A DNA stretch of 64,000 nucleotides, taken from the NCBI GenBank assembly GCA_965205015.1, contig OZ242029.1, forward strand, positions 3,424,001 to 3,488,000. The letters run 5' to 3'. Made by a program: the position numbers and the translations under genes. Within the stretch, counting starts at the first letter, position 1. Every line of letters starts with the position of its first letter. Source of the stretch: Candidatus Poribacteria bacterium (GTDB lineage Bacteria > Poribacteria > WGA-4E > WGA-3G). The notes beneath the pieces are model-generated. The model saw only the letters and a list, made by a program, of their open reading frames with translations, did not search any database and was not told the DNA's origin. Shown here piece after piece: positions 1 to 58,157 of the stretch.

Positions 1-1115
1 TCTCCTGTGTAGCGCGGATCCTTCCACGGATACCCAGAAGCGTCAGGCGAATGCTTGAAGAGAATGGAATCCCAATAGGTATAGATATGCCGATCGGGGA
101 ACCCTTCATTGTAAGCGGTGCCTGCGTTCAGTCCTTCTGCTTTGAGCGCATCAGCGTACTTTTTGGCGAGTTCCACATCACGCACGATAATCGCGGCACT
201 AATACCGCACTCACCGGTCGGATCATCCACGTGTTGCGGGATATAACCTTTCGGTTTTTCATTGAGTTCCGCTGTGAACGCTTTTTTGAGTCGGCGTGTA
301 TGTCCCAAGATATCCTCTAATTTTGAGAGTTGCACGCGTGCAATCGCCCCCAAAATTTCGCTCGTTCGGTAGCACTGCCGGGAAAAAGGTTTGTTTTGCC
401 ACTCAGAATCGCTCATCCACATCGGTAAACCGGGTTCCGCTGCGAAGGCTGCGCGTTCATAGACATCATAGTCATCGGTAAAAACGAGTCCGCCTTCCCC
501 ACAAGAGATGACCTTGTAGTAATTGAGGCTCCACGCGCCTGCATGTCCCCACATTCCAGCGTATTTCCCTTTATATTGTCCGCCGACACACTGACAGCAA
601 TCCTCAACAACCAGGAGATTGTGCTGCTGGGCGAGGTCGACAATCGCCTCAAGCCGGCAGGGTACGCCTTGCATGTGTACTGGTAAGATCGCTTTCGTAT
701 GGGGTGTAATTTTCCGTTCCACATCAGCGATATCTAAGCCGAGTGAATCGTCGATTTCTGCTATGACGGGAATCGCACCGACGCCAACAATAGCAGCTGC
801 GGTCGCGATAAAGGTGTAGCCTGGAACTATCACCTCGTCTCCGGGTCCGATACCGACCGCAGTCAGGGCGCAGATGATTGCGGAGGTGCCGGAGTTCACC
901 ATCAAGGCGTGTTTTGCCCCGAGGTGCGCCGCTGCCTCCTTTTCAAAACTGGCTACATTTGAATCCTCAACGAACCGAAAAAGTTTCCCACTTCGCAAGA
1001 CCTCAGTCACAGCAGTGATCTCACGCTCATCTATCACACTGGGCCCGTGCATTCCGCCGGGTATAGCATCGGCAATAACCGGCGTTCCGCCCTCTATTGC
1101 TAAACGTTCTGGCAT
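1..1115 (-). CDS. DegT/DnrJ/EryC1/StrS PLP-dependent aminotransferase (3' end runs off the window)
   Basis: Not in the ORF track because it has no stop in the window. Manual translation from ATG 1115 (GGAG RBS upstream) gives MPERLAIEGG...VNSGTSA...GPGDEVIVPGYTFIATAAA...VEDCCQ...SLNYYKVISCGEGG, matching DegT family motifs. Confidence 0.9.
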   Translation of the reverse strand, partial: MPERLAIEGGTPVIADAIPGGMHGPSVIDEREITAVTEVLRSGKLFRFVEDSNVASFEKEAAAHLGAKHALMVNSGTSAIICALTAVGIGPGDEVIVPGYTFIATAAAIVGVGAIPVIAEIDDSLGLDIADVERKITPHTKAILPVHMQGVPCRLEAIVDLAQQHNLLVVEDCCQCVGGQYKGKYAGMWGHAGAWSLNYYKVISCGEGGLVFTDDYDVYERAAFAAEPGLPMWMSDSEWQNKPFSRQCYRTSEILGAIARVQLSKLEDILGHTRRLKKAFTAELNEKPKGYIPQHVDDPTGECGISAAIIVRDVELAKKYADALKAEGLNAGTAYNEGFPDRHIYTYWDSILFKHSPDASGYPWKDPRYTG

Positions 1116-1183
1116 TTTTTCTCCTCCACAGCTCTTCGGACGTAGTTTGAAACCTCACCAAGAAAAATGCGAAATATGGTGAT

Positions 1184-1212
1184 ACTGTACCAGATGCATC
1201 CGTTTTTGTCAA
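1184..1212 (-). promoter_or_regulatory. sigma70-type promoter for the DegT gene
   Basis: Minus strand reads TTGACA-N17-TACAGT. Confidence 0.6.
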
Positions 1213-1261
1213 GTATTCTTTTACAACATAGGTCATTTAAGGATGACTCGCCAATCCCACT

Positions 1262-1533
1262 ATGACTTCCCTGGACCAACACTCACCGCTACTCTACACC
1301 AGTATTCTCACCGCGGATATGAAAATTTTTCGTCTCAGATGCACCCTTTTCCATGTAACGAACAAGCGCACGGGTGTGACCGCTACTGATGTCGTCCAGC
1401 GTGATTATTTCGCCGCTGCTTTCGGTGATTTGACCCGGAAGTCAGTCGTTCAGGATGGCGATGTTATCGCAGTTAGCATTCTTGACGCAGCCGGTCGTAT
1501 CATCGGTGAACCGACGACGTATACCGTTTTCAT
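1262..1533 (+). pseudogene. Remnant of a Poribacteria-type secreted-protein C-terminal module, truncated by an insertion
   Basis: VTNKRTGVTATDVVQRDYFAAAFGDLTRKSVVQDGDVIAVSILDAAG..GEPTTYTV resembles, from memory, the Ig-like module preceding the NYPNPF domain in such proteins. Similarity stops at an IS left end. Confidence 0.45.
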
Positions 1534-1584
1534 CAAAATCTTCTGCGTGGAAACCTCGTGCTTTAGCCCGGGGTGGAAACGCAG
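1534..1584 (+). mobile_element. IS200/IS605-family left end (subterminal hairpin)
   Basis: TTCAT|CAAAATCTT-CTGCGT-GGAAA-CCTCGTGC-TTTA-GCCCGGGG-TGGAA-ACGCAG. Same architecture and same upstream TTCAT|CAAA as the tnpB element left end ending at 26199. Confidence 0.7.
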
Positions 1585-2267
1585 TTTTCTTTTGTCAATT
1601 ACCGTAGGTTTTGTAAATATAATTTGCTTTTTACCTGGAAATTTTGTATAATAGTTACCTATGCCATTTATATTTTATATGATGAATAATGAAAAAGTGA
1701 CCTAAGTAACTATAGAGTATTAGAAAGAGGATACGTTTGAGTTGCGATTTTCGCAACCGACACAACGACAAAAGAGAAAACATTGAGATATTTCATGGAT
1801 TTACAACTACTGACTTAAAAGCGATGGTGCCGTTTGAAAAACAACACCTTCGCCAACCGAAAAAAACCTTGATAGACTTGAACATTTTACCTGAGGAACG
1901 CTCATGACGAAGTGCAGTTTACCCTTTGAATTAAAAAGATCCCTGAAGATGCGTGCGGATGTGCGCGCCCCGATGAGAGGGAGTGGCTGCTGCGTTCTGA
2001 GACGTTCTGTCGATCCTCAAATAGCTAAAAACCCCCCCCGAATTCTCCACAAACGATAAGTGTTTTATTTCATAAGACGATCCTGACGGTCCTGCATCGG
2101 ACTGTCTTCGCGCCCGCAGGTGGTTCTGTTTTACACAGAGTCCCCATTGCGGGCTATTTTTGTTGCATCGGGTCTCTCCCGATGTGTTGGACACTCCAAT
2201 ACAACCACAGGCACGACCTCTTGTCAATATGGCTGTGTAAGTCGTGTTAAAAAGGAGATTTAGAAAA

Positions 2268-3566
2268 ATGTTTTCAAGAATACTGACTTTTAGCATCTTA
2301 TCCGTTTTTTGCGTATTCACTGCCATTTCTTATGTATACGCGCACGAGGCTACTGGTGAGGGTAGTAGTAATCCTCATTGGCACAATCTTTGTCATGATC
2401 ATGGTGGATATAGCCATTGTCATTTGGCTGTAGTGCACGGAAAAGTAGAGAATGGTGTTTATTCTGAGGTTTACAAGCCTGGCTTTAACCACGCTGATGA
2501 ACATAACAATAATCCCAGTAAGATTCTGCGGGTCGGTAGGCCACCCGAAGAAAACGTGCATACGCATACCTTTGTTGAGTCCCACCAACATGACAACTAC
2601 GAGTGGCACGCACATGAAGATACACACGATCACCCAGATTCGGAGCACCCGCACCCGCCTAACCACCCTTTTCATGTCACCCACGCTGATGTAGGTATTC
2701 GCACAGATACTACTGTGGATGAGCAACCTGTGAACCAGCCTACAGGGAATCAACCTACAGGGAATCAACCTACAGGGAATCAACCTACAGGGAATCAACC
2801 TACGGGTACTCAACCCACAACGGTAGTGGAGAGTGGAACATCTGAAGGGACATCCGAAGCAGGTGATAGCGGAACCCCTGTTGACACAAGCACAGAACAA
2901 AATTTCCTCAGAGCCCAACAAAAATACGGAACACCACTTGAGGGGACACCAGAAACACAACCCAAGCCTCAACCTTTATTACCCATACGCATCACAGAGT
3001 ATATGGTCAGAGATTGGTCTGCTGGAATTGGTGGATTACCACAGTGGATTGAGGTGTATAACCCCAACACCGAGGCAGTCAACCTCAAAGGTTGGACGTT
3101 CCAATATGCCACCCGACGGTCAGCCAACGCTCCCCATAAAGTCCACACACTGACGCTCGCTGGAACACAGGACGGGTTCAGCATAGCGGGAGGCGGCGTC
3201 GCGATCCTATCAACCCGAAAAGTTCCGGCATGGCGATTTTCCGGTATTGGAGCCTCCCAGGTCTACAACTTGAGCATAGACAACGTCCTCAAACGCGGGT
3301 GGGTGTTGACGGATGCCGATGGCAAGGAGATTCAGCGTCTCGGTAGGGAGGCTTTTAGTGCGTTCGGGGATCCGGTGGCACCGCTCCATCAGAACAAGGC
3401 GCGTGTCTCGCATCAGGTGCTCCCGAGCGAGTCGCCTCCGGAGGTTTATTACTATGGACATCGGGAAGACATCGGGTCTCCCGGGTTCTACGAGCAACCG
3501 GCGCCGGCGGCACCAAGCGCGGTCAGACGGAAACAGATCGGCACTTGGGCAGCCTTGAAAAAATAA
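2268..3566 (+). CDS. Secreted His-rich protein with QPTGN repeats, lamin-tail-like domain and C-terminal TWAALK motif
   Basis: AAGGAG RBS, signal peptide, very His-rich N-terminal region, ITEYM..QWIEVYNPNTEAVNLKGW (LTD-like), ends GTWAALKK. Confidence 0.8.
   Translation: MFSRILTFSILSVFCVFTAISYVYAHEATGEGSSNPHWHNLCHDHGGYSHCHLAVVHGKVENGVYSEVYKPGFNHADEHNNNPSKILRVGRPPEENVHTHTFVESHQHDNYEWHAHEDTHDHPDSEHPHPPNHPFHVTHADVGIRTDTTVDEQPVNQPTGNQPTGNQPTGNQPTGNQPTGTQPTTVVESGTSEGTSEAGDSGTPVDTSTEQNFLRAQQKYGTPLEGTPETQPKPQPLLPIRITEYMVRDWSAGIGGLPQWIEVYNPNTEAVNLKGWTFQYATRRSANAPHKVHTLTLAGTQDGFSIAGGGVAILSTRKVPAWRFSGIGASQVYNLSIDNVLKRGWVLTDADGKEIQRLGREAFSAFGDPVAPLHQNKARVSHQVLPSESPPEVYYYGHREDIGSPGFYEQPAPAAPSAVRRKQIGTWAALKK
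2736..2819 (+). repeat. 15-bp coding tandem repeat (CAACCTACAGGGAAT, about 5.5 copies) encoding QPTGN
   Basis: Three perfect units at 2751-2795 with degenerate flanking units. Confidence 0.95.
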
Positions 3567-21018: not shown

Positions 21019-22434
21019 ATGACTTCAAATATTAAGCCCAAGACGATATTTACGGGTGATAATCTGCCTATCATGCGCGGGATGAACAGTGCATCGGTGG
21101 ATTTAATCTACCTTGACCCCCCTTTTAATAGCAATGCCAACTATGCAGCACCCATCGGTTCTGAGGCTGCAGGTGCTGAGTTCAAAGACACTTGGACGCT
21201 CCGAGATGTTGACATCGCATGGCTTGACCTCATTGAGGCAAAACATCCTGCCCTGAACCGAGTAATCCACGCTGCGATGACAAATAGTGATAAATCTTAC
21301 CTTGTTTACATGGCGGTTCGGTTGTTGGAGATGAAGCGTATTCTCAAGTCAACGGGTTCTATCTATCTGCATTGTGACCCTACTATGTCTCACTATTTAA
21401 AGCTCGTTATGGATGCTATTTTTGGCAAAGAGAACTATCGTGCGGAGATTATATGGAATAGACAGAGTTCTCATAACGATAAATTGTATGGTGCCACTCA
21501 TGAGACAATCTTCTACTATAGTTATGGTGAGAAAGCTATCCCTGATGAAGTACTAATTCCTTTAACTGATAAACGCAAAAAAAACTTTAATAAAAGCGAC
21601 AAACATGGCAAATATGAAGGTGATAATCTAACGGCTTCAGGGAGCAGTGGTGGAGAATCAGGACAACCTTGGCAAGGTATTTCTCCAGGAAATAGGCACT
21701 GGTCACCTCCACGGGTAGGTAGAGGTAGATATGCTGAATACATTGTTAAAAAATTCATTCCAAATTATGGGGAGATAGAAGGTGTGCATGCCCGTTTAGA
21801 TGCTTTAGATGAGGCAGGACTAATTTTTTGGAACAGTCGTGGAAATCCACGTCTCAAGCGTTATCTCACACCAGATGCTGGAATGCCTCCTCAAAGTCTT
21901 TGGAATGATATTTCATACGAAGAAGGTGAAGATACTGGTTATCCTACACAAAAACCTCTGGCACTCCTTGATCGCATCATCAAAGCATCATTAAGCAAAG
22001 ATGGGGTTGTTCTCGATCCGTTTTGTGGGTGTGCTACAACCCTTGTCGCAGCAGATAGGCTTCAACGTCATTGGATTGGTATTGACGTATCTGCCAAAGC
22101 CATTGAATTGGTTGTTGAACGTATCAAAGAGGATCAGGGCTTATTTCGGGACATCATCGCACGCACAGACATTCCAAAACGCACAGATTTAGGAGACATA
22201 TCCCCATACAACGCACCTGAAAACAAAACTCAGTTATATGGAGAACAAAGTGGATATTGTAATGGGTGTGGCACACATTTTCAGAAACAACACCTTGAAG
22301 TTGACCATATTATCGCAGAAAATGTTGGAGGAACTGACCATATTGAGAATCTTCAACTGCTTTGTAGTAACTGCAACAGAATTAAAGGTGACCGCGGGCA
22401 AGAATATCTTGTCTCAAGACTGAACAAAGATTGA
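21019..22434 (+). CDS. N6/N4 DNA methyltransferase (beta class) fused to a C-terminal HNH endonuclease
   Basis: YLDPPF, YPTQKP, LDPFCGCATT; then CNGC..LEVDHII..ENLQLLCSNCNRIK. Confidence 0.9.
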   Translation: MTSNIKPKTIFTGDNLPIMRGMNSASVDLIYLDPPFNSNANYAAPIGSEAAGAEFKDTWTLRDVDIAWLDLIEAKHPALNRVIHAAMTNSDKSYLVYMAVRLLEMKRILKSTGSIYLHCDPTMSHYLKLVMDAIFGKENYRAEIIWNRQSSHNDKLYGATHETIFYYSYGEKAIPDEVLIPLTDKRKKNFNKSDKHGKYEGDNLTASGSSGGESGQPWQGISPGNRHWSPPRVGRGRYAEYIVKKFIPNYGEIEGVHARLDALDEAGLIFWNSRGNPRLKRYLTPDAGMPPQSLWNDISYEEGEDTGYPTQKPLALLDRIIKASLSKDGVVLDPFCGCATTLVAADRLQRHWIGIDVSAKAIELVVERIKEDQGLFRDIIARTDIPKRTDLGDISPYNAPENKTQLYGEQSGYCNGCGTHFQKQHLEVDHIIAENVGGTDHIENLQLLCSNCNRIKGDRGQEYLVSRLNKD

Positions 22435-22482
22435 AATGTGAAAACTACTAATTGCGAATAAGAAAAATACGAGGTGATATTT

Positions 22483-23457
22483 ATGATACTTGATGATAAA
22501 TCTTACATAAGAACTCCTAAAAAGAATGTGTCACTGATGCATTATTTAGGATTAACTGAATTAATCTCAATATTCAAAAACAAGTCTATATTCTTCTCAA
22601 CCTGCCAACTATATCAAGACCAACGCGAGGGTGCTTTGACCGAGCCTTCCTACAATGAAACATTAAAAAATTTGCTATGGGAAGATAATACGCCAGTAAA
22701 AAAAGATGATAGTTATTCTAATTACAAAGAAGATGTCATTAATAAAATGTATAGTGCTGGCGAGATACGCTGGATAGACAGTTTTGGATATTTAATACAA
22801 GAGTTCGTCAGATATTTTATGTTCACACATTGCTGGTCACTTTCAGATGAAGAAGATATATTAATGTGGGATAGATATAAATTTCATAAACCCACATTAG
22901 CAATAAAAACAACATTAGAGAGTCTTCAAGATGCTATCAATATACCAATATATATTGGAGAAATAAACTATGTAGATTACGAAAATGAACACATAATAGG
23001 GTATGAAAGGTTTACTGAAAAGAATCTTACAGATAAAGAAACCATAGAAGAACTCTTTTATCAACCCTTTTTTCACAAACAAAAGTGTTACCAGAACGAA
23101 AATGAAGTCCGTTTAATAATATCCTATGAAACCATAACAAAACATTTCACAGAAGAAACATATATAACGGATATTCCATTCTATAATAAAAATGGGTTTA
23201 GTTACAGGGATTTTGGTTTCGACGCAATTTTCCATCTGAAGTCAACTAATCCTAAGAGGTTTACCAAAGAGGACGGGAAAGATATAGATATACCACAAAG
23301 AGTATGTGTAGAAATCAATACTGATATTCTTATAGAACAAATCATAATTTCACCCTATGCCGAAAACTACAATTTTAGTATTGTACGAGATATAGCAGAG
23401 AAGTACGATTTTGATCCAAATAAAATCGTGGACTCTCCAATTAATATCAAGGCATAA
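22483..23457 (+). CDS. AT-rich DUF2971-like protein
   Basis: HCWS...LMWDRY, IGEINYVDY, K..YQNENEVR. Visibly lower GC than the core genes. Confidence 0.65.
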   Translation: MILDDKSYIRTPKKNVSLMHYLGLTELISIFKNKSIFFSTCQLYQDQREGALTEPSYNETLKNLLWEDNTPVKKDDSYSNYKEDVINKMYSAGEIRWIDSFGYLIQEFVRYFMFTHCWSLSDEEDILMWDRYKFHKPTLAIKTTLESLQDAINIPIYIGEINYVDYENEHIIGYERFTEKNLTDKETIEELFYQPFFHKQKCYQNENEVRLIISYETITKHFTEETYITDIPFYNKNGFSYRDFGFDAIFHLKSTNPKRFTKEDGKDIDIPQRVCVEINTDILIEQIIISPYAENYNFSIVRDIAEKYDFDPNKIVDSPINIKA

Positions 23458-23574
23458 TGACATATCATGAATCTCCTATATTTTTACGAACCGCACAAAT
23501 AATGTGAAATGTACTGCCCCCCTAAATTCGGGCCACTCCCTAAACCAAGATTGTGGTATAATCTCCACGACTTG

Positions 23575-24302
23575 GTGCGTTTCAGCGAATAATGATGGAA
23601 TGTAAGTTCAATTCTTACTCGGTAAACCCAACATCCGCATATCTTACTCTAACTGCGTTGCTGGAAACAGCAAGGTGGAAAGCAAGAGGAAATGGCGCAT
23701 GTCTGCGGACAGAGGCGAAACTCATAAGAGCGTCCAAAAGTGACACGTCCGATAGAGGACGGACATGGATAAACGAAAGTTGAATATCCGTAAGCCTCGT
23801 TAGGATAGACATAGATACCGCCTTGAAAAACTATGGTATTCTAAGATACCTCTTTATAGTAGGTGTCTGAAAGTTGCTATTCAAGTCTTAGCAACTCTAT
23901 TGGGTTCATAGAATACAGGAGTGGGTGGTTTCCCACTGTATCGGGGTATAGGATACTTCTAAATCCGTCTGAGAAGTCTATCATTAGGGAGTTGAAAAGA
24001 ACCTAAGTAGACTCCCCGAGTCTATAAGGTTGAGGAGATTAGGTAGCGTCATTGACGCGAGCATAATCAGGTTGAGTGCTTTGAAACATTTCTGAAAACA
24101 TTTTATCTATAGTCTTGAAATCGTGTGAAAACATGCAGTCTATAGAAGTCGATGACTTATGAATAAGGAAGAAAGTAAAAGTGGTTATCATGACCTAAAG
24201 CGTTTATCGCCACACTCAACTGGAAGGTCTCCATGTGCGGTGAAAGTCGCACGCATGGTTTGGAGGGGGCTGTTAGAGGGCGACCTCTAATGGCTACCCT
24301 AC
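23575..24302 (+). ncRNA. ORF-less group II intron (728 nt)
   Basis: Starts GTGCG, ends CCCTAC. Domain V at 24228-24261 has a GAAA loop and AC bulge. Domain VI has a bulged A at 24296. EBS1 CAAGTC (23882-23887, in a hairpin loop) is complementary to exon end GACTTG (23569-23574). Confidence 0.9.
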
Positions 24303-24315
24303 AAAGGAGGTCCCG

Positions 24316-24675
24316 ATGGAGGACCCAACGAAAACAAAGAACCTTCACCCCTGAGTTTAAAGGCCAAATTGTTCTTGAGGCACTTAGCGGTGAAACTTCG
24401 CAAGCGGAACTGGGTCGTCGACACAACCTGAGTGAAGATCAACTCTCGAAGTGGAAGCAGCAAGTCGTTGAAAACGTAGGATCTTTGTTTGCTTCCACAG
24501 AGCAGCAGTCCAGCGAGGCAGCTGAGCGGATCGCACACCTTGAACAGCTCGTTGGGCGGTTGACTGTGGCACTCGACATTCAAAAAAAAGCAGCGACGTG
24601 GTTAGACCAAAACTGACGGAGCAGCAAGAAATAGTTGAGGCACTCCGGACGGATTATTCGGTTCGACAGATATGT
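24316..24675 (+). pseudogene. IS3 transposase orfA/orfB remnant
   Basis: AAAGGAGG then ATG 24316 is one base out of frame with RTQRKQRTFTPEFKGQIVLEAL...QLSKWK. OrfB is truncated. Confidence 0.8.
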
Positions 24676-24850
24676 AAGGAGGATATACGCGTCAAGGCAC
24701 CCAAACCTAAAGGATTGGGCTTGTGCTTCGTAGCAGTCAGCCTTCCGAGGAAGGGACTTACATCTGCTCCACAGAGGGACCCAAGGCAGCCCTCAAGATG
24801 TTTATCGCAGCGTTTACGTCCCTATCGTGGTGTGAACCACACTCACGACA
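24671..24850 (-). ncRNA. Predicted TnpB omega/reRNA (scaffold over the tnpB 3' end and right end; guide is the flank 24690-24671)
   Basis: Established TnpB architecture; hairpins CTTCC-TC-GGAAG and CCCAA-TCCTTTAGGT-TTGGG. The 5' boundary is approximate. Confidence 0.55.
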
Positions 24851-25978
24851 CGTCCACTGCCGATCCGAAAGTGAAAGATTTTCGGTGTGATGCCCGCAAT
24901 CGGAGCAAGGTTTTGTAGTAGGCGTCCACTGCCCAACTTGAGAGAACTCACGATTATGTTTAAAACACTTGAACCTCAGTATCTCAACAAACTGGTAAAA
25001 AGCAAGGTCAGAGACTTTGCGTCCCCACAGACGTTTCATCCCATCAAGGTTCAGCGTCTCGGTGACAATGTGGTCAAACCGACGGCAGAGGTCGGTCGCA
25101 CGTTTGTAGTGCCAATCCCTGCGTTGGTTGGCGATCTTACGATAAAGCCGTGCGAGTTCACGGACAGCACGCCACCAATTGTTAGAACCTTTCTGCTTTC
25201 GGCTGACTGCCTTGTTAAGTTTTCGGAGTTGGTTCAAGGCGTTTTTCAAAGGTTGCGGATGGTGGATCTTCTCACCGGTGCTCAGGGTCAGATAGGTGTC
25301 CATACCGAAGTCTATCCCTACGCTCTTACCTGTAGCGGACATCACTTCTTTGGATTTACTATCTGTCACAACATAGAGCCACAATGTTCCGACAGCATCC
25401 TGACCGATTTGAATATACTTGACGTTCCCCTCCCACTCGCGATGGTGGTGATACAAGATATTTCTGCGGACAAACACAAACTTCTGTTTCTCTATATCCC
25501 ACTCTTTGAAGGAGAGACAGACAGTGCCTCTCGGAACTTTAGACGGTTTATCGTCATCCTTAGGGGGGACTTCAAAGACCTTGTACCCTGTTTGGAACTT
25601 CGCAGAGCGGTATTTGCTACGTTTTTTGAACTTCGGAGGTCCCACGCGCCTGCCACGTCTGCCGTTTTCAATCCAATCAAAGAACCGCTCATACCCGATA
25701 TGGATACGGATAATCACAGCGTCAAGCGTATCACGGGGGATCCATGCCCAATGCTTATGGGTGCGTTCGAGCAACTTCGTCAGATGCGGTTGCAGGCGAA
25801 AACGACCCGCGTATTTTCCATAGATACGGTAATATCGCTTCTCCAAAGCAAGGAAGTGGTTATGCACATCACCCAAGTCATCAAGCATGTTGCCGACGCG
25901 CATGTTTTGCGAGTGTTCGCGTATTTGGTATTTGTAGGTGCGACGCACACGCTTTTGTTTTCGCTTTCGTTTTTTCAT
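24758..25978 (-). CDS. tnpB: RNA-guided endonuclease TnpB
   Basis: RuvC-I GIDFG, RuvC-II VTETLN, zinc finger CSDC/CREC, RuvC-III DRDVNAAINI. Catalytic D/E/D residues are intact. Confidence 0.95.
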   Translation of the reverse strand: MKKRKRKQKRVRRTYKYQIREHSQNMRVGNMLDDLGDVHNHFLALEKRYYRIYGKYAGRFRLQPHLTKLLERTHKHWAWIPRDTLDAVIIRIHIGYERFFDWIENGRRGRRVGPPKFKKRSKYRSAKFQTGYKVFEVPPKDDDKPSKVPRGTVCLSFKEWDIEKQKFVFVRRNILYHHHREWEGNVKYIQIGQDAVGTLWLYVVTDSKSKEVMSATGKSVGIDFGMDTYLTLSTGEKIHHPQPLKNALNQLRKLNKAVSRKQKGSNNWWRAVRELARLYRKIANQRRDWHYKRATDLCRRFDHIVTETLNLDGMKRLWGRKVSDLAFYQFVEILRFKCFKHNREFSQVGQWTPTTKPCSDCGHHTENLSLSDRQWTCRECGSHHDRDVNAAINILRAALGPSVEQM

Positions 25979-25980
25979 AG

Positions 25981-26077
25981 GATGTCACGTATCACGCCTT
26001 TAACCCCTGATAAGTGGGTGGGACCGACACGTAACCTTGCGGTTACGCTTATCATGTCGGTCCAACGTGATACATCT
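25981..26077 (-). ncRNA. Structured 5' leader of tnpB with a predicted kissing/pseudoknot pairing
   Basis: GTATCACGTT/GGCGTGATAC, GGACCGACAT/GTGTCGGTCC, GTAACC-GCAA-GGTTAC, and TGATAAG/CTTATCA. Confidence 0.65.
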
Positions 26078-26106
26078 ATCAAACCATAATTTATTGAAAA
26101 TGTCAA
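26078..26106 (-). promoter_or_regulatory. tnpB promoter
   Basis: TTGACA-N17-TTTGAT with an extended TG. Confidence 0.6.
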
Positions 26107-26199
26107 GTGTTTTTTCAAAAAAAAACGCTATGGTCTAACACATGAGGGCGGATTTTCCTCCCAAGTCTAAAGACTTGGGTTTCCAATCCGTAAACTTTG

Positions 26200-50316: not shown

Positions 50317-51051
50317 TCAATACCGCCAATCTTCATGCGCCAGCGGTGCCTGATTCAGGGCGTCGCGATACGCATGCCACTGTGGCAGAAACTTGTCCAT
50401 CAAGGCGCGAAACCGGTCGTTATGTGCACGCTCCAGAAGATGCACCATCTCATGCACCAGGATATACACCACGCAGGATTCCGGTTTCTTTGCGAGTTCG
50501 AGATTCAGCCAAATCCGTTTGGCTTCGATGTTGCAAGACCCCCAGAGCGTTTTCATCTTCTTAATCCGTACTTCGTTGACGGACACACCTAACTTCACTT
50601 CCCATTTCTCAAGGAGCGGCGGCAGTTGCGCTCGGAGATTCTGGCGATACCAGCGATAAAGTACTGCTTCGCGCGTGTCCCGATCCGACCCCGGACGCAC
50701 ACTCAGAATGATCTTTGTGTTATTGGGTAGCCAGACCTTCGCTGGACAGTCTTGTTCTACGACATCCAGTCGGTAGCGTCTGCCTGCAAAATAGTGGCTC
50801 TCACCTGTCACAAATTCGCGTTGAGATTGCCGATCCTGCTTTGTAAACACCTCTTGTTTCCGGCGAATCCAGCCCAATCGTGAGATAACCGCTATCCGAA
50901 TAGTATCATCATCAAAGTATAAGGGTGCCGATACCCGCACGCGCCCGTTTGGCGGATGAACACTTACATGGAAGTTCTTGATCTCCTTGCGGATCACCTC
51001 TACAGAGATCCCGCGGATATCAATATAATACCTATCAATTTTAGTATTCAC
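50317..51051 (-). CDS. YgjP/DUF45 (M48/SprT-like) metalloprotein associated with type I R-M
   Basis: GESHYF.GRRY, MKTLWGSC, YILVHEMVHL..H (HExxH). Confidence 0.9.
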   Translation of the reverse strand: MNTKIDRYYIDIRGISVEVIRKEIKNFHVSVHPPNGRVRVSAPLYFDDDTIRIAVISRLGWIRRKQEVFTKQDRQSQREFVTGESHYFAGRRYRLDVVEQDCPAKVWLPNNTKIILSVRPGSDRDTREAVLYRWYRQNLRAQLPPLLEKWEVKLGVSVNEVRIKKMKTLWGSCNIEAKRIWLNLELAKKPESCVVYILVHEMVHLLERAHNDRFRALMDKFLPQWHAYRDALNQAPLAHEDWRY

Positions 51052-54000
51052 GCTGATTCACCGCCAGTTCGAGAAGTGAATTGACATCCAGGTCATAGTC
51101 CCTAAATTCCTGTTGAATTACCCGTGCGATAGCGTTCTGTACCTGCCGCTTCTTGCGTCTGTTACCGCGCCAGTCGTCCTGTTTCGTTCTGCGGATAGCG
51201 GTATCTATTGCGAGTGCCGCCGCTTCCCTACGGTCTTCAGGAAGCGTGTCTAAGTTGTCAAACAGAGCGTGTAATGCGCCGGTATTGATATTGGCGGGAT
51301 AGCGATCTGGGTTTTCGTGTTCTGCTATCCGCCCACTGAGTCCTTCGATTTCGGATAGATATTCACGATAATCCAAAGCCCCGCGTCGGCGTTGGCGAAT
51401 GATGTCATCGAGGAGATGTGAGATCTCCTCGTAATACCTCGGATTGACCTCCGACCTGTCAACGATAAGCCGACGGACGTTGTTTTCGATGGTTGATGCT
51501 CTTGCGATTTCGTTGGTGCGAATGCCCTCCGGTAGCAGATTCAGTGCTTCGGCACCGTTTTGAACAATCAGTTCCACTAAGGGAATATCGCCGAGCGTTG
51601 AAAGGATTTCGCTCTCCTCAGCTCGGATGTATGTATCAATGAGATGCCGCATATCAGGTTCATAGGCTTTCAGATCAACGTAATCGCCGCTGGCAAGTTT
51701 GATCTCTCGGCTGACGTTTTCGTAGTGCGTCACCTCTTCCTTAATCTCCCGTGCCGCATCGGCACTGTAACCCGCCTCGCGCATATCGTTGGCGAGATTG
51801 GCATAAGCACGCACAAAGGCTGCTGTGAATTTATAGAGTTTCTCGCGTTTCGGCTCATTTGCTTTGAGTTGTTCGAGATTCCCAGCTTCTTCACCACAGA
51901 AGAAACGGATGTAATCGGCGGTGTCGTGTGGTGGTGCCACGGGTTCGCACAGTGCTTTAACCGCCTCACGCGTTTCCTCTAAACGTTCTCGCCCTTTTTC
52001 GAGTCTATCCTTCAATAATCCTTGGACATCTTCTGCATCGAAATTTTCAAAGGCTTCGCCGGTGTAGTCGGTAATAGCTTGCTCCAGAGACCGGAATAGG
52101 TCTTGATAATCGACGATGTAGCCGAATTCCTTGTCCTCACCGTCGAGACGGTTGACCCTACAGATCGCTTGGAAAAGCCCGTGATCTTGCATATTCTTGT
52201 CGATATAGAGATAGGTCGCGGGAGGCGCGTCGAAACCCGTAAGGAGCTTATCCACAACGATGAGGAGTTTCATCTCGTCTGGCTTTTCAATGAAACTTTT
52301 CTTCACCTCCTGTTCAAACCGATCGGCTTTGGACATTGCAGTGTTTGCGGGTTCGTCAAAGTGTTCCGCGAGCATCTCGCGATAGGTATAATACTCTGTC
52401 TGTCTATCTGTCATCCCTTCTCCGGTTTCTTCCCGTGCGACATCATCGGCGGAAGGTCTATAGGAAGTTACAATAGCACATTTCCCTTTTAAGGGTGTTT
52501 CCTGAAACATCTGAAAAAATCGGCAGGCGGAAAAGATACTATCGGCGACGAGCATAGCGTTGCCGCGTCCGCTTTTAAGTCTGTCTCGATTTTCCATATC
52601 AAGGACAATATCGGCGACGATTTTACCCAACCGCTCCCGCGAACTGAGAACATTCTGCAACGTGCTCCAACGCTGTCGGAGCTGCGCCCTTGCTGTATCG
52701 GTGAGTCCACTGGTTCTATCGTCAAACCATTGATCGATCTCTTCCTGAGAGGAGAGGGTTTGGTTAATGTCGCGCGCCTCATACCGCAGATCTAACACGA
52801 CACTGTCTTCAACGGCTTTGTCATACGTATAGGTATGGATGTAGGGACCGAAGGTTTCAATGCTCCGTTTCTTGTCGCTTTTCAACAGGGGGGTGCCTGT
52901 GAAACCGATCAACATGGCATTTGGCAGGAGCGTCTTCATCGCGCTGTGGAGTTTTCCTGACTGCGTGCGGTGGCATTCGTCGACAAAGACGAAGAATTCA
53001 CCCTTCGCTTGGAAACCGTCCGATAGATGTTGCTGAAGGTCGTCAAGATAGTCGTCATAATCGTCAGTATCGCTATCTTCATCTTCTCTTTCATCCGATC
53101 TGCCGAACTTGTGGACGAGTGAACAGATTAACCGCTCCGCAGGATTCGTGAGGACCTGCAGGAGATGTGCTCCGCTCTGTGTCCGCCGAATGTCCTCGTT
53201 GACACCCCTAAAAACACCTTCAATTTGTTCGTCGAGTTCGGTGCGGTCAGTGATAATGAGCACACGCCCATTAGGGATGGTTTCGAGGATTGATTTTGCG
53301 AGCCAGACCATTGTAAGGCTCTTACCGCTGCCTTGGGTGTGCCAGATGATACCGCCTTCTCTACGTTTCACACGTTCTTGCGCGGCTTCCACACCGAAGA
53401 ATTGGTTGTGTCGGCAAATCTTCTTGGTTCCGGCATCGAAGACGATGAAGTTGTGCAGGATGTCAAGCAATCGGGTTTTGTTGCAGACTTGACTGAGTTC
53501 TCGGAGCAGGAAATTATCGCCTACCTCGGGATGGGCATCTGTTTCCTTCCATCGTAACCAGTGTTTCTCTGGTGTTTTGATAACGCCGTAGTGTAGTCCT
53601 TGGGTTTCACTGCCTGCCATGACGAGCTGCACAGTGCTAAAAAACCATTCGATGAAATCCTCGCGTTGGTTGGTAAGGTTCTGGCGGATGCCTTCGGAAA
53701 CGGAGACGATGGAACGTTTGAGTTCGAGGACACCGATGGCGATACCGTTGATGTATAGCACTAAATCAGGGCGTTTGTTGCCGTCCTCGCCTTTGAGAGT
53801 TACCTCTTCAGCGATACCGAAATCGTTATTGAACGGATGCTCCCAGTCAATGAGCTTAACGGCGATCCGGTGCTCACCCGTGCTGGGTTGGACGTTCACA
53901 CCGTAGCGCAGGAGTTCATAGACCTCTCGGTTTGCTTCATAGAGTTTTCTACTACCACCGAGTGCCGCCGCCTTCTCCAGTTCATACAGCACTTTGGTGA

Positions 54001-54175
54001 TGATGGGGTCGTCGTGCCCGCTGCTGCTCAACCAATCGGTAAGCAACTCTTTCTCAATATTGCTATTATCCTGACGTCCTTGCCAGTTGCGGAGGTAGGT
54101 ATACCCCAACGTCTTCTGGAAGAATGTGACGACACGTTCTTGGGTGCGTATTTCCCTGTCACCAACGGTACTCAT
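51041..54175 (-). CDS. hsdR: Type I restriction endonuclease subunit R
   Basis: RPDLVLYING..ELK, WHTQGSGKS, DECHR, GFTGTP, LLTGFDAP, QAICRVNR. Confidence 0.96.
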   Translation of the reverse strand: MSTVGDREIRTQERVVTFFQKTLGYTYLRNWQGRQDNSNIEKELLTDWLSSSGHDDPIITKVLYELEKAAALGGSRKLYEANREVYELLRYGVNVQPSTGEHRIAVKLIDWEHPFNNDFGIAEEVTLKGEDGNKRPDLVLYINGIAIGVLELKRSIVSVSEGIRQNLTNQREDFIEWFFSTVQLVMAGSETQGLHYGVIKTPEKHWLRWKETDAHPEVGDNFLLRELSQVCNKTRLLDILHNFIVFDAGTKKICRHNQFFGVEAAQERVKRREGGIIWHTQGSGKSLTMVWLAKSILETIPNGRVLIITDRTELDEQIEGVFRGVNEDIRRTQSGAHLLQVLTNPAERLICSLVHKFGRSDEREDEDSDTDDYDDYLDDLQQHLSDGFQAKGEFFVFVDECHRTQSGKLHSAMKTLLPNAMLIGFTGTPLLKSDKKRSIETFGPYIHTYTYDKAVEDSVVLDLRYEARDINQTLSSQEEIDQWFDDRTSGLTDTARAQLRQRWSTLQNVLSSRERLGKIVADIVLDMENRDRLKSGRGNAMLVADSIFSACRFFQMFQETPLKGKCAIVTSYRPSADDVAREETGEGMTDRQTEYYTYREMLAEHFDEPANTAMSKADRFEQEVKKSFIEKPDEMKLLIVVDKLLTGFDAPPATYLYIDKNMQDHGLFQAICRVNRLDGEDKEFGYIVDYQDLFRSLEQAITDYTGEAFENFDAEDVQGLLKDRLEKGRERLEETREAVKALCEPVAPPHDTADYIRFFCGEEAGNLEQLKANEPKREKLYKFTAAFVRAYANLANDMREAGYSADAAREIKEEVTHYENVSREIKLASGDYVDLKAYEPDMRHLIDTYIRAEESEILSTLGDIPLVELIVQNGAEALNLLPEGIRTNEIARASTIENNVRRLIVDRSEVNPRYYEEISHLLDDIIRQRRRGALDYREYLSEIEGLSGRIAEHENPDRYPANINTGALHALFDNLDTLPEDRREAAALAIDTAIRRTKQDDWRGNRRKKRQVQNAIARVIQQEFRDYDLDVNSLLELAVNQREY

Positions 54176-54193
54176 ATCACTATTCCCTTAGGA

Positions 54194-55747
54194 TTACTCC
54201 CGCCACTGTCTTAAAATGCCCTGCAGCTCATCCGCAAGGGGTCGAATGTCACTCTCTCTTTGATTCGCCTCTAAGCGAGCAACGATCCGGCAGATCTCCG
54301 ATGCCTCTCTACGTAAGTTTTCGGAGAGGCTCCGAAATTTGTTTTTGGCGATCTCTGAAGGCGAATCGGATGCTGAGCTGTATATGGCATCCAGCTGCTG
54401 AATCAAGTTAGACAGACCTGCACGCGTGTTTCCGAGTCGTCCGATTTCTACGTCAGGGATGTATTTTAACCGATCCCACACCCAACTTTCGGGGGATCCA
54501 TTACCGGGGAGAAATAGTATGGACACAGTGCTTTTTGCAGCATCTTGTATTTTAAGCGAGATTTCGCCATCTCTCTGGTCACCATCAAGAATGAAAACAG
54601 TATTTTGAATCTGACCGAATTTTCTTAAAGTCTCAGCATGCATTGGAAATTGACTTGCCCCTGTGTCACGTCCAATGCGGATCGCTTCCCTGTTCATTCC
54701 CTCTTCTGGGAGTAGAAAGTCAAATATACCCTCCAAGATACCTTCAGCGATGTCATCTTCACAGAGTAGTTTGAGCATCTCACTGGAGCGTCCGTAGAGT
54801 GCATTCTGAATTAAGTCGCGATATGCCGGGCGGACCACAACTTCACCTGACGTGTCGGATCGATCAAGAAAAATCCTACCATTGAGCGGCACTGAGTCGA
54901 GAACGACTGGACTATGGGAGGTTACAATAATTTGGAGGTCGTTGCGAAGGGCAAGTTGCTGTAGATGCAACATGAGTAGTTGCTGCACCCAAGGATGCAG
55001 TCCAGCTTCCACTTCGTCAATTAGAACGAGTGCCCCGTCGAGTTGCGTGATCTCTTTTGACAACCGCAAGATCGCACGTTCCCCAGCTGCCATGTGTAGT
55101 TCTGAGTAAGCCGCCCCCCCTTCTTGGGCGGCAAAGAGCAGATTTTTGTTACCACTTGATAAATCAACGACCTCCGAATATCTAAAAGGGAGCATCTGAT
55201 GTGCAAACTCAATCTGTGATGCCGTTAGAGGTGTTTCTTCCGGTGGTTCAGATTTCAGACGTGACAGGCTGAGCACACCACGCACCTCCGATGGGTTCCT
55301 CAGATTGCTGAGCGTTCTGAGATAGACCGGCCGCTCAGGTTGACTGGCGTTTTGACGACCGAAGAAACTCCGATTCCACCCTTTGGTGCGTCGCCATCGC
55401 ATGGAGGCCTCACCTTCTGGAGTCTGGTAATAGAACTCCATTGTGACCGTTTGCTGCATATCTTGGTGCCTCCCAAGTTTAGGGCGATAATCAGGAAAGA
55501 GTGTGGACGGAACGAATTCCTTAACCCCCGCACCCGGCACCTTATAAGCGCATGCTGTGGCAAAAAGGATCGTTGACTTGCCAGTAGTATTTCCACCTGC
55601 GATTACACTTACCGGATAATCAAATGGGACTCTTAAGTTATTGAATCCACGGATACCATCTAAGCGGATTGCCGATAGAAAATGTGATAGATGCGGTTTT
55701 TTGCCTTGTAAATTTCTCCCAAGTTCTTCTAAGCGTCTCTCAATCAT
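54194..55747 (-). CDS. ABC-type (AAA_21) ATPase fused to a TOPRIM-like domain
   Basis: GGNTTGKST, MAAGE, LIDEVEAGLHP, TSHS; then LCEDDIA and ILDGD. Confidence 0.8.
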   Translation of the reverse strand: MIERRLEELGRNLQGKKPHLSHFLSAIRLDGIRGFNNLRVPFDYPVSVIAGGNTTGKSTILFATACAYKVPGAGVKEFVPSTLFPDYRPKLGRHQDMQQTVTMEFYYQTPEGEASMRWRRTKGWNRSFFGRQNASQPERPVYLRTLSNLRNPSEVRGVLSLSRLKSEPPEETPLTASQIEFAHQMLPFRYSEVVDLSSGNKNLLFAAQEGGAAYSELHMAAGERAILRLSKEITQLDGALVLIDEVEAGLHPWVQQLLMLHLQQLALRNDLQIIVTSHSPVVLDSVPLNGRIFLDRSDTSGEVVVRPAYRDLIQNALYGRSSEMLKLLCEDDIAEGILEGIFDFLLPEEGMNREAIRIGRDTGASQFPMHAETLRKFGQIQNTVFILDGDQRDGEISLKIQDAAKSTVSILFLPGNGSPESWVWDRLKYIPDVEIGRLGNTRAGLSNLIQQLDAIYSSASDSPSEIAKNKFRSLSENLRREASEICRIVARLEANQRESDIRPLADELQGILRQWRE

Positions 55748-55841
55748 AAGTTATCCCCTTCGTGCAAGTGCCTTTCTTTTCTTTAATCCTGGACATATTA
55801 CCGTCTCGATCTCAACCAGAAGTTACGACTCTGGCTGTATC

Positions 55842-57359
55842 TTAATCCACTTTTTCTGATTTCAGACGCGTCAAGGCAGTCTTCCCTTTATGCGTCAGGC
55901 GGTATTTCTGTAGGCGACTATTGGGTTTATCTGGCAGTGTATATTCAATCATCTGATCAGCCAAGAGTGTCCGCACAACCTTATTCAGTGGTCCAGAGAT
56001 TGCCCTTTGCCCTAAGTTTCTGGACAATTCGGATTTTTGCATTGGCCCCTTGGTAAGTAAGTTTAGTACTCTCGACTTGAGTTCTCTGGGCTGTGACTCT
56101 GGCTGTGACTCTGGCTGTGACTCTGGCTGCCCCGTAATCTGCTTCGGAGGCGTGGCACGCCAGATCGTTATCTTGAATCCGCTGCTGTCAGTGAATTCCG
56201 GTTCGCGTAAGTTAACATCCTTACATCGACGGATCATGTCTAATGTCCCTGTCCCCATCTCTTCAATGTATTGAGTGAGGTATAAGGACCGAGCAAGCAA
56301 CCGGTTGTTGGGCACCGATGGATGCGTGTCTCGCAACTGTTCCAGAGTCAAGGAGGGTGGCAATCTACCAGGATTCAATATCTCAAGCCGATCCGAGAAC
56401 AGCATCACTTGGACGCTGGCATTACTGGTATAGTCTCGATGTGCTACGGCATTGACGATCGCCTCCCTTACAACTTCTTTTGGGATTTCATAGGCGATAG
56501 GGGCTTGCACGCTTTCTGCGCGTGTGCCTACCGACAGTGCGATCTTGCTAAGCACAAAATCCACGGCTTGATCGACGAGTTGAAATGCTGTGCCTTTGTA
56601 GACTTGATAGGATGGGATGGGCTTCGCGACCTCTGTTCCGTGAAAGTGGGCACATTTAACCTCCGAGGAAATTAGAAACCGCTGTGGGACTTTCCCAAAT
56701 ACCAGCACTGCCGCGTTCGTGGGGCGTCCATCGTTTAGCAGATTGAGATGAACCAATAACTCTTCGGTTGATGCCCTTTCAGTTAACGGAAACTCCCTGG
56801 CACTCCGTGCCGTTCGGATAAACCAGCCTATCTGCTCGGGGTCGAGATCGTCCAGCGATGCTTTTGAACAGGGTGCCGCATCAAAAGGTTCAGAACGGAC
56901 GAGGTCTTGATTGTCTAAGTATTCGACTAACGCTGCGTAGAGTGCCGTTATTAACTCTTCCGACGTGTTGAAACGTTTTCGGATGAGTCCAGCTTGTGCT
57001 TTACGGATGAGTGTCTGCATCTTCGAATGCCGATCATTATCATCCGTTCCTTTCACGAAAATCAGCCGGTGTATACCGGAAGCGGTTGCCTGATCGAACT
57101 CCCGTTCTGTCGGTGATATACCGTCTGTATCTTCCCATCCGTAGTCGTTACCGAACAATCCTATATAGACATCCGACTGCTTAACCTCATCCAGATAGAG
57201 GTCATCCGGACGGCGATCTGATGCTGGAACATCTTCAAACAGAAAAACATCAAAAAACCTTCGCATCAAGGGATCGTCGCGCAGATAGTCGCGTAGTGCT
57301 GCACGTTCTTGTGCGAATTCTCTTTGGACGCTGCTGATAAAAATACGGATAGGGTTCAT
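55842..57359 (-). CDS. DUF4062 + RecG-C/HATPase_c_4-like + wHTH protein
   Basis: RIFISSVQREF..ER (DUF4062), REAIVNAVAHRDY, GTG, PDKPNSRLQKYRLT. Confidence 0.82.
   Translation of the reverse strand: MNPIRIFISSVQREFAQERAALRDYLRDDPLMRRFFDVFLFEDVPASDRRPDDLYLDEVKQSDVYIGLFGNDYGWEDTDGISPTEREFDQATASGIHRLIFVKGTDDNDRHSKMQTLIRKAQAGLIRKRFNTSEELITALYAALVEYLDNQDLVRSEPFDAAPCSKASLDDLDPEQIGWFIRTARSAREFPLTERASTEELLVHLNLLNDGRPTNAAVLVFGKVPQRFLISSEVKCAHFHGTEVAKPIPSYQVYKGTAFQLVDQAVDFVLSKIALSVGTRAESVQAPIAYEIPKEVVREAIVNAVAHRDYTSNASVQVMLFSDRLEILNPGRLPPSLTLEQLRDTHPSVPNNRLLARSLYLTQYIEEMGTGTLDMIRRCKDVNLREPEFTDSSGFKITIWRATPPKQITGQPESQPESQPESQPRELKSRVLNLLTKGPMQKSELSRNLGQRAISGPLNKVVRTLLADQMIEYTLPDKPNSRLQKYRLTHKGKTALTRLKSEKVD
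56088..56129 (-). repeat. 12-bp coding tandem repeat (QPES x3)
   Basis: GGCTGTGACTCT three times. Confidence 0.9.
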
Positions 57360-57440
57360 TGTTCAGTTCTTACCTTCTGGTATAACGCGAGTTCGACTTA
57401 TGATGGATTATGAATGTAAGTGGACATTCGAGATTAATTG

Positions 57441-58071
57441 ACATAGCACTCCGCTGGAGTGCAGCTGAATGACACTCAATATTCTATAGACATGTTGCTC
57501 CGCTGGAGCAAGGAGACCGATTTTTGAGCCTCCACTTTCAAATCTTGCACGTATATTAGGACTTACACATTTCCTCTTAAAGTCCCCCTGATAAGGAGGA
57601 TTTAGGGGGTTAGATAAGATGAAATAACGAGTTTTGAGCGAAATATATTCTTTTTTGTTCAATTTGCGAAAGTCCTGTATGTGTTCATACGTCCGTTTCA
57701 GTGCTCCCTCCTCACGTCGAATGAAGATTAAGAATTTAATCAGGTAATTTCTCAACGTGCGATAAATCGCACTACTACGAGCCGACCCGTTTGTAGTAGG
57801 GCAATTCATTGCCCGTCAATTACCCAATTTATTTGTTAAACTTCATAAGGCGTGATATGTCTATAGAAAAATATATTGCGAACCACCGCACTCCCGGGGG
57901 ATGCCATACGGAGAACCTTCATACCGTTGATTCCGGCGTGCCATGTCTACAAGATGTTTTATCAGTATAGAATTCCATTGATTTCCCAAGGTATCCTCTT
58001 TGCTCCAGCGGAGCAACATGTCTATAGAAAAATGTCCCGAAAGATGCCGCACTCCAGCGGAGTGCTATATC
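57441..58071. repeat. Mosaic of nested REP/MITE-like elements between hsdS and the DUF4062 gene
   Basis: About 70-bp outer inverted arms with CTCCGCTGGAG palindromes; inner AGGACTTAC...AAGTCCT element; ATGAAG.TTAA...TTAAACTTCAT element containing a GTAG REP pair. Confidence 0.75.
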
Positions 58072-58157
58072 TGTAGAATTGGCTGCGGACGCCAAGGTAT
58101 CCTATAAAGTCTGGTTCAGGAAAAGACGCGACAGACACCAAGCATCCCCAATCCGCG

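Follow-up and report, generated by a model that had tools for sequence, protein, structure and literature searches.

An intron without a reading frame in the leader of a dead IS3-family remnant: one member of a widespread family of dependent group II introns in Candidatus Poribacteria

Why should the leader of an IS3-family transposase gene be interrupted by several hundred nucleotides (nt) that appear to code for nothing? The question is raised by a locus of a Candidatus Poribacteria bacterium (contig OZ242029.1), within a 64,000-nt stretch of DNA (positions 3,424,001 to 3,488,000 of the forward strand) that was analysed as a whole and is here called the window. A 728-nt segment at window positions 23575-24302 lies inside an insertion sequence (IS), and a first-pass annotation, made from the letters of the DNA, had taken it for a group II intron lacking an open reading frame (ORF). 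This identification holds. We consider it highly probable that the segment is a complete and structurally intact intron of subgroup IIB, dependent on protein supplied in trans and residing at a retrohoming site in an IS3 leader, in a host IS that is itself dead. For annotation, this accounts for the 'non-coding' gap in the IS leader and marks the IS copy as a remnant.

23575..24302, + strand: group II intron of IIB type without an ORF, 728 nt (Rfam, empty sites, DNA contig joint, covariation)

The intron begins with GTGCG (23575-23579), in agreement with the GUGYG consensus, and finishes with TAC (24300-24302), in agreement with AY; such termini are kept in 12/12 aligned relatives, the 3' end being TAT in one. 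The Rfam model of domains V and VI, RF00029, matches 24222-24302 with 48.3 bits (gathering threshold 40, E 2e-06), and this is the sole gathering-level Rfam match across the window. Both termini, domains V and VI and the branch-point A, seventh base from the 3' end, are thus found where the first-pass annotation had placed them. No ORF longer than 65 amino acids (aa) lies wholly within the intron, which is therefore non-autonomous.

The boundaries are exact, as empty-site copies reproduce them. On the complete 5.89-Mb chromosome of a related genome (G001), an intron-less copy of the same IS (L031) carries the window's 5' exon at 338-402 (98.5% identity over 65 nt), joined without a gap to the counterpart of the 3' exon 24303-24679 at 403-775 (91% over 377 nt). 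The 20-nt exon junction occurs uninterrupted nine times in three of five related genomes, three times each in G001, G139 and G152; none was found in G144 or G123, and a reversed-pattern control gave 0. Four of the nine read CTCCACGACTTGAAAGGAGG (CTCCACGACTTG followed directly by AAAGGAGG), identical to both window flanks joined. Intron-less IS copies had been predicted to join at precisely these coordinates, and they do so. The same joint appears in a contig of the DNA run X4 (sponge), which connects 23574 to 24303 and omits exactly the 728 nt with ends GT..AC. A BLAST comparison of the intron and its IS with the window returned self-matches only.

Expected ligated-exon junction: CACGACTTG followed directly by AAAGGAGG

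The public runs that contain this stretch are mostly labelled sponge metagenomes, and the read evidence consists of contigs in all four runs considered (X4, X15, X17 and X18). Contigs of the RNA runs X15, X17 and X18 span portions of the intron and its exons, and in those of X15 and X17 position 23574 runs straight into AAAGGAG... of a related 3' exon. These joined exons are no proof of splicing, because the same joint exists as DNA, in X4 and in the genomic empty sites.

Does the segment also possess the interior of a group II intron? In an alignment (A2; mean column identity 81%) of 12 sequences, the window intron and 11 full-length relatives found in nine genomes, the RNAalifold consensus contains 193 pairs, 80 of them with compensatory changes. 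Standard pairs fill 97.7% of the paired cells, compared with 89.5% in 500 shuffles (0/500 as high) and with 36-42% when partners are slid by 1-3 columns, a control that is somewhat flattering since the structure was derived from the same sequences. The number of pairs changed on both sides is independent of that concern: 80, against 36.6 in the shuffles (0/500 as high) and 13-18 after sliding. Non-standard consensus pairs number 4/193 in the window copy and 2-8 in its relatives. The architecture of domains I-VI is present, and it rests on covariation, not on a gathering-level Rfam match to domains I-IV. The Rfam check proposed by the first-pass annotation accordingly succeeded at the 3' end with RF00029 and fell short over domains I-IV, where a match within domain I is sub-threshold (RF02012, group-II-D1D4-7, 23632-23760, 26.5 bits against a gathering threshold of 34, E 0.003 with permissive filters) and the compensatory changes provide the backing. 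The domains are as follows.

23580..23997, + strand: domain I (consensus helices 2-21, most with compensatory changes)
24000..24031, + strand: domain II, a short hairpin (helices 22-23)
24034, + strand: gamma, a G in J2/3 whose partner is C24302, the last intron base (G-C replaced by A-U in 15/16 of the multicopy introns of G001)
24037..24068, + strand: domain III, a GATTA...TAATC stem around a GCGTC/GACGC hairpin
24067..24224, + strand: domain IV stub without an ORF, 158 nt (helices 25-33)
24225..24261, + strand: domain V (Rfam alignment, A2, consensus helices 34-35)
24264..24300, + strand: domain VI with bulged branch-point A24296 (helix 36)

In domain III the inner hairpin (helix 24) has three covarying pairs; the outer stem is invariant and was placed by eye. 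The domain IV stub is the most sequence-conserved part of the lineage, and by eye its first ~25 nt resemble the start of domain IV in an intron that encodes a reverse transcriptase (RT), L088. Helix 36 of domain VI shows compensatory changes in 11/16 pairs, and A24296 occupies an unpaired column (751) flanked by the pairs 723-750 and 722-752.

How does such an intron find its site? Group II introns pair exon-binding sites (EBS) with intron-binding sites (IBS) in the target, and the elements concerned can be located in the window copy.

23569..23574, + strand: IBS1 GACTTG, the final six bases of the 5' exon (6/6 Watson-Crick pairs with EBS1)
23872..23896, + strand: hairpin H2 with EBS1 CAAGTC at 23882-23887 (covaries with the target)
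23843..23867, + strand: hairpin H1 (loop TCTTTATAGTA), a spare twin of the EBS1 hairpin
23803..23807, + strand: EBS2 GGATA (A2 columns ~243-249, a variable segment)
23562..23566, + strand: IBS2 TCTCC (TATCC in some empty sites)
23949, + strand: EBS3 T, pairing with the first 3'-exon base A24303 (A2 column 394)

The EBS1 hairpin had been singled out by the first-pass annotation as pairing exactly with the exon end, and here the family adds considerable weight. The hairpin reads AGTTGCTA-TTCAAGTCT-TAGCAACT, and its CAAGTC pairs with GACTTG; in a related intron on the G001 chromosome (L008) the loop is AGTGAG and the exon CTCACT. All 12 family members form 6-7 Watson-Crick pairs between EBS1 and IBS1 over eight different targets (GACTTG, CTCACT, ATTGTGA, ATTGTGC, CTTTGA, AACTATA, CAAATG and AATCAG), the pairing terminating at exon position -1 in 11/12 and at -2 in L074. 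The window intron and L008 use H2, and the H1 loop of the window copy mismatches its exon; judged by sequence match, the H1 loop acts as EBS1 in L072 and L074, which possess both hairpins, and in L009 and L073, which have H1 only. H1 was also considered as EBS2, for which it fits L008, and was dropped family-wide in favour of columns 243-249. That segment complements the exon upstream of IBS1 (approximately -14 to -8) in 8/12 members, and the window's GGATA forms 5/5 pairs with TATCC of the empty site in L031 (the ATCCAC variant).

Recognition of the 3' exon decides the subgroup. The first-pass annotation had read the bases preceding EBS1 as a IIA-like delta pairing, a reading that the comparison does not support: the position just 5' of EBS1 holds U throughout the family, whatever the 3' exon, whereas column 394 is the best of all columns against the +1 exon base (10/12 Watson-Crick and one G-U, the remaining case being L074, whose 3' exon is rearranged and is not the IS). 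Given this EBS3-type recognition, together with a T.el4h-type intron-encoded protein (IEP) in relatives, the alignment and protein matches assign the intron to subgroup IIB.

A solitary intron would leave little more to say, but the window copy belongs to a widespread family of dependent introns, elements of a kind already known, with some unusual details. A degenerate domain V pattern run on species-representative genomes yielded seven loci, six of them in metagenome-assembled genomes (MAGs) of Candidatus Poribacteria and four of these six on the G001 chromosome. For the window's 501-aa PhoX-like protein, identity is 93% with the G144 counterpart and 92% with that of G001, which places the source of the window in a Poribacteria species near both genomes. 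Matches to the lineage at E 1e-10 or better occur in 51/175 Poribacteria genomes (the top three candidates being scored per genome), and near-full-length ORF-less copies in at least 10 genomes. The first-pass annotation had asked for further copies and for RT-encoding relatives; both exist in related genomes. No account of such introns in Poribacteria came up in a literature search.

G001 offers the clearest view of multiplication. It holds 24 matches to the window intron by BLAST and 22 by RF00029, among them 16 copies of a 692-nt ORF-less intron, 12 identical and the others differing by 1-2 bases. The 16 stand at 16 places, each inserted between ...TTGTCTGAATCAG and GATT..., a dispersed repeat of which 66 uninterrupted sites (at most one mismatch) are found in the same genome (control, 0). 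Beyond the insertion point the repeat continues from GATT into CAGGATT-like units; it runs mostly forward between ~0.8 and 3.2 Mb and mostly in reverse elsewhere, with several exceptions, and the intron copies share this strand switch, as if aligned with replication.

It is possible to imagine that such copies spread as DNA, either carried along when an IS transposes or by gene conversion between repeated targets. Multicopy targets, be they IS leaders or a repeat with 66 empty copies in G001, do offer homologous flanks for conversion, and an intron inside an IS can ride passively. However, the flanks of the 16 copies diverge within 4-8 nt of the junction, on both sides, which fits site-specific retrohoming rather than duplication or conversion, and each insertion is bounded exactly by GTGCG...TA(C/T) next to a matching IBS. 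The comparison between the window and L008 is equally telling. L008 occupies the equivalent leader position of an IS3 relative and its intron is 91% identical to that of the window, but the adjoining orfA is only ~71% identical and each EBS1 loop fits its own exon; this argues for independent retrohoming rather than co-inheritance. Spread at the DNA level is therefore very improbable as a general account. The first-pass annotation had the intron hitch-hiking on its IS, of which the residence in an IS stands, while the data for the window and L008 point to independent arrival. What the family does share is the type of target, for it homes to multicopy DNA in the form of IS leaders and of a short, dispersed repeat, and such multicopy targets may well serve as safe havens.

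Other members illustrate the same preference. Related introns in G002, G123 and G139 (L009, L072 and L074) occupy the same IS leader at a point ~20 nt upstream from the window site, between GATTGTG(C/A) and TA(C/T)AAT; they lie within the -10-like box and would split any promoter there. The intron-less IS of L031 is a pseudogene with in-frame TAG and TAA codons, and at 1499-1806 it carries, antisense in orfB, a 5'-truncated intron fragment (the 3' ~300 nt), as expected from abortive reverse transcription.

When was the reading frame lost? In a tree of the first ~470 nt, 13 ORF-less rows fall into one clade (99/98) together with L087, L088 and L090. L087 and L088 bear an RT; L090 lost its ORF separately, by a deletion that left remnants of the IEP ends. 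The tree, which requires two changes, does not establish one origin of ORF loss (approximately unbiased (AU) test for a single clade, p 0.059). L090 (G156:C1:3831600-3833100), a ~930-nt intron retaining the first ~40 codons and the last part of an L088-type IEP ORF, is an independent and recent deletion, apart from the main ORF-less lineage. Two inserts that might have marked an RT-bearing form of the ORF-less lineage were rejected. The 1.5-kb insert in domain IV of a G116 copy is a TnpB gene (L091, 421-aa ORF), and the 1.2-kb insert in a G002 copy carries an inverted IS orfA. The latter, an IS-leader copy broken after intron position ~400 (L001/L012/L014, G002:C64 ~136.5-138.5 kb), is a case of nested mobile elements.

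The most unusual feature of the window intron concerns its catalytic core. Its domain V has the GAAA loop and the 2-nt bulge, but the triad reads G-G-[UCU]-C in place of the canonical A-G-C: TCT (24228-24230) is inserted between the G and C of the triad, and the first triad base is G. Canonical relatives, with ...AAAG-CCATG... and an AGC triad, score 63-70 bits with RF00029 as opposed to 48 for the window copy, which owes its lowered score to the TCT bulge and the G in first position. In A2 the TCT insert is seen in the window, L008, L074 and the L011/L013-type copies, that is the 16 multicopy introns of G001; TT is found in L075 and a single T in L076 and L078. The RT-bearing L088 has TTT. 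A strict domain V pattern recovered 20 instances in 13/175 genomes, 11 canonical and nine with an insertion (eight genomes), a split that is a sample and not a census, as the pattern missed the 16 G001 copies. All of these recently multiplied copies carry the triad variant AAGGTCT-CCATG, and in 15/16 the gamma-gamma' pair has changed from G-C to A-U. These sequence comparisons, along with the similar bulge in an RT-bearing intron, suggest that the triad bulge is tolerated. A title-level literature search turned up nothing relevant on insertions in the domain V triad.

If the intron moves, who supplies the protein? G001 contains exactly one RT (by protein search and Pfam RVT_1), a 564-aa RT-maturase with an HNH end encoded in a 2334-nt intron. 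It scores 327.6 bits with TIGR04416, and its best relative of solved structure is 6me0_C, of T.el4h type (E 8e-97), as compared with E 2e-38 for the IIA protein LtrA. Elsewhere the presence of an IEP is patchy, and in the incomplete MAGs G002 and G003 no RT was detected. Covariation shows that the site is chosen by three pairings with the flanks: EBS2 with IBS2, EBS1 with the last six exon bases, and EBS3 with the first base of the 3' exon. A maturase/RT from a related intron elsewhere in the genome would bind the conserved domain IV stub and aid lariat splicing of the intron RNA, and the resulting particle could then reverse-splice into matching DNA sites, to be copied into DNA. These steps of splicing and movement are drawn from the family, from established group II biology and from the precedent in Thermosynechococcus.

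Several observations weigh against an intact, trans-dependent intron. The domain V triad is interrupted by TCT and begins with G, and EBS2 has one mismatch with the window's own exon (the CTCCAC variant, which is also found as an empty site in G001 and G152). The domain IV stub contains no recognisable ORF remnant, and the closest RT-bearing introns are only ~65-75% identical in domain I. No member of the IEP/RT family was found among the 36 of 45 window ORFs of at least 150 aa that were scanned; in the nearest relative, G144, the RT is reduced to a fragment (54.8 bits, interrupted by a stop) and the intron copy is truncated; and G155 has ORF-less copies with no RT match. The joined exons of X15 and X17 are equally attributable to intron-less IS copies and provide no direct evidence of splicing.

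Some of these points are what one would expect of an inert fossil, an intron of the same origin that no longer splices or moves, its triad disrupted and/or its maturase/RT gone, and that decays along with its dead IS. The bulge with its low Rfam score, the lack of an RT among the scanned window ORFs, the RT fragment and truncated intron copy of G144, and the frameshifted and truncated state of the host IS all speak for it. Yet the same triad variant is carried by every one of the 16 recently multiplied copies in G001, in combination with a compensatory gamma-gamma' change, and a similar TTT bulge by L088. The window copy has no more broken pairs than its relatives, and its EBS1 and EBS3 are still perfect to the flanks. 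We therefore regard a fossil as unlikely, although deserving of serious consideration, and favour a structurally intact intron that depends on protein supplied in trans.

A more ambitious scenario is that the family represents an old, phylum-wide lineage akin to a short interspersed nuclear element ('SINE-like'), which would be retromobile despite a 1-3-nt pyrimidine bulge in the triad, would be retargeted through its duplicated EBS1 hairpin and would be driven in trans by maturase/RTs of related introns anchored in essential tRNA genes (tRNA-Sec and tRNA-Arg-CCU). We put this forward tentatively, as a possibility that falls somewhat short of even likelihood.

The homes of the RT-bearing introns are of interest in their own right. 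The sole RT-encoding intron of G001 (L037, G001:C1:410300-414700, minus strand, ~991-3324) splits the T-stem of a tRNA-Sec gene, between ...GGTGGGTTCGACTCCCA and CCCTCTCCCGCCA, with an Rfam tRNA-Sec match of 59.5 bits over the 5' part; the gene lies between SelB-like and lipoyl-synthase-like ORFs (named by reading their translations). Four RT-bearing introns in G131, G175, G150 and G172 (L081, L082, L083 and L089), 72-76% identical to that of G001, share the 5' flank GCGCCTGTAGCTCAGGGGA(T/C)AG, which reads as a tRNA D-arm, and in L081 and L083 the 3' flank contains the anticodon loop CTTCCTAAG, by eye that of tRNA-Arg(CCU). The tRNA hosts are thus identified from one Rfam match and from reading of the flanks. 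ARAGORN called no tRNA at 11 loci with RT-bearing introns, because the tRNA genes are split. A title-level search for group II introns in tRNA genes of bacteria turned up no such case.

How do these introns compare with known systems? RmInt1 of Sinorhizobium meliloti has its natural homing site in ISRm2011-2 and so rides on multicopy mobile DNA. It is autonomous, with its own RT/maturase that has no endonuclease (En) domain, and its insertion point is within the transposase gene, not the leader. Both RmInt1 and the window intron are IS-borne; the latter is ORF-less and sits in the leader. Archaeal ORF-less introns, in work from 2003 attributed to Dai and Zimmerly, reportedly home into the ORFs of related introns, RT-encoding relatives coexisting with them. 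The target of the window family is different, being an IS leader or a short repeat and not another intron's ORF.

Bacterial ORF-less introns are described as rare and nearly always accompanied by related IEP-encoding introns in the review by Zimmerly and Semper (2015, PMC4424553), and the only case cited there of a genome without an IEP is C.te.I1 of Clostridium tetani, which self-splices. Like C.te.I1, the window intron is an ORF-less bacterial group II intron; in contrast to the rarity stated there, the Poribacteria family is not rare in its phylum. The pattern of IEP co-residence given there fits G001, but not obviously G144 or G155.

The closest parallel is provided by the TeI3 ORF-less introns of Thermosynechococcus elongatus (Mohr et al., 2010, PMC2882425). 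Those introns are likewise ORF-less and of IIB type, have multiplied within a genome into families split by diverged EBS, include copies at a conserved site in an insertion sequence and are mobilised by the IEP of related introns. Moreover, the T.el4h-type IEP (6me0) is the best match in the Protein Data Bank (PDB) of the Poribacteria IEP. The Poribacteria lineage differs in belonging to another phylum and spanning 51/175 genomes rather than one, in a domain IV stub without a recognisable remnant of the ORF termini, in the frequent 1-3-nt pyrimidine bulge of domain V, in the duplicated EBS1 hairpin and in the ratio seen in the complete genome G001, where a single IEP stands against at least 16 ORF-less copies. 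Thermosynechococcus has been the main worked example of how ORF-less introns multiply, and Poribacteria offer a second such system. Their spread over many species supplies natural replicates in which the drift of target specificity can be followed, with EBS changes tracking exons, and the family bears on how one RT drives many dependent copies and on how variable the catalytic core can be. Four features of the family merit specialist attention, namely the bulged triad, the doubled EBS1 hairpin, the spread across the phylum and the location of RT-bearing relatives in tRNA genes.

What, finally, is the state of the IS in which the intron resides? Its parts, and the gene that follows it, are these.

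23510..23574, + strand: 5' exon, the left end of an IS3-family element, starting TGTACTGCC (98.5% to L031 338-402)
23554-23562, + strand: TGgTATAAT box, within the 5' exon
24303..24679, + strand: 3' exon, comprising the ribosome-binding site (RBS) AAAGGAGG (24303-24310), ATG 24316, orfA and the start of orfB (91% to L031 403-775)
24582-24589, + strand: A8 slippery run
24758..25978, - strand: TnpB (IS605-family) gene, 406 aa, replacing the rest of the IS3 copy (OrfB_IS605 9.2e-25, Cas12f1-like_TNB 6.5e-20)

The intron is inserted 64 nt inside the left end of the IS, between the TGgTATAAT box and the RBS, which is where the first-pass annotation had located it with respect to a -10 element; a promoter scan passed over the box for want of an adequate -35. 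The window OrfA has an HTH_Tnp_1 domain (Pfam, E 2e-12). ATG 24316 is out of frame with OrfA, four extra bases directly following the ATG by comparison with L031, and its own frame stops after 12 codons. IS homology ceases at 24679, leaving about the first 27 codons of orfB, and no rve/DDE domain or further IS3 sequence was found anywhere in the window. In an intact relative in G139 (L108), OrfA is 98 aa long and is overlapped by an OrfB of 282 aa that contains HTH_21 and rve; the window copy lacks the full IS3 set of OrfA, OrfB with rve and an A-run frameshift site. The window IS copy is a dead remnant, frameshifted after the orfA start and truncated at 24679.

The position of the intron invites the idea of a regulatory device, in which splicing would gate the transposase or, conversely, retention of the intron would provide the sole in-frame start, ATG 24290. 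Since the 3' exon opens with the RBS, this site could be hidden by domain VI and the EBS3 pairing as long as the RNA is unspliced. Translation from ATG 24290 would give 108 aa, of which residues 13-108 are 92% identical to residues 3-98 of the intact L108 OrfA; in the spliced frame, no start codon follows the in-frame TAA at 23559-23561. However, with no orfB/DDE domain left there is nothing to regulate, and control of the transposase by the intron is irrelevant here since the host IS is dead. L008, the closest copy, has no such intronic ATG; set beside L031 and L108, the shift in frame from ATG 24316 resembles ordinary decay; and the introns ~20 nt upstream in L009 and L072 split the TGnTATAAT box itself. 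A regulatory role is, for these reasons, extremely unlikely, and we retain the reading of an intron that homed into an IS leader. ATG 24290, situated in domain VI, opens a frame that crosses the 3' splice site into OrfA and continues through 24616, and an OrfA-like product of the window copy could come from unspliced RNA only, the spliced frame being without a start codon; the in-frame ATG is most likely a coincidence.

The TnpB element (24680-26190) directly adjoins the broken IS3 end. Defence-type genes surround the IS remnant and recur further along the window (21019-23457 and 51044-61864). They include a 471-aa fusion of an N6_N4 DNA methylase with an HNH nuclease, after which comes a 327-aa ORF without a Pfam match, and the type I restriction-modification genes HsdR, HsdS and HsdM, among which lie genes for an AAA_15/AAA_21 ATPase and for a DUF4062 protein.

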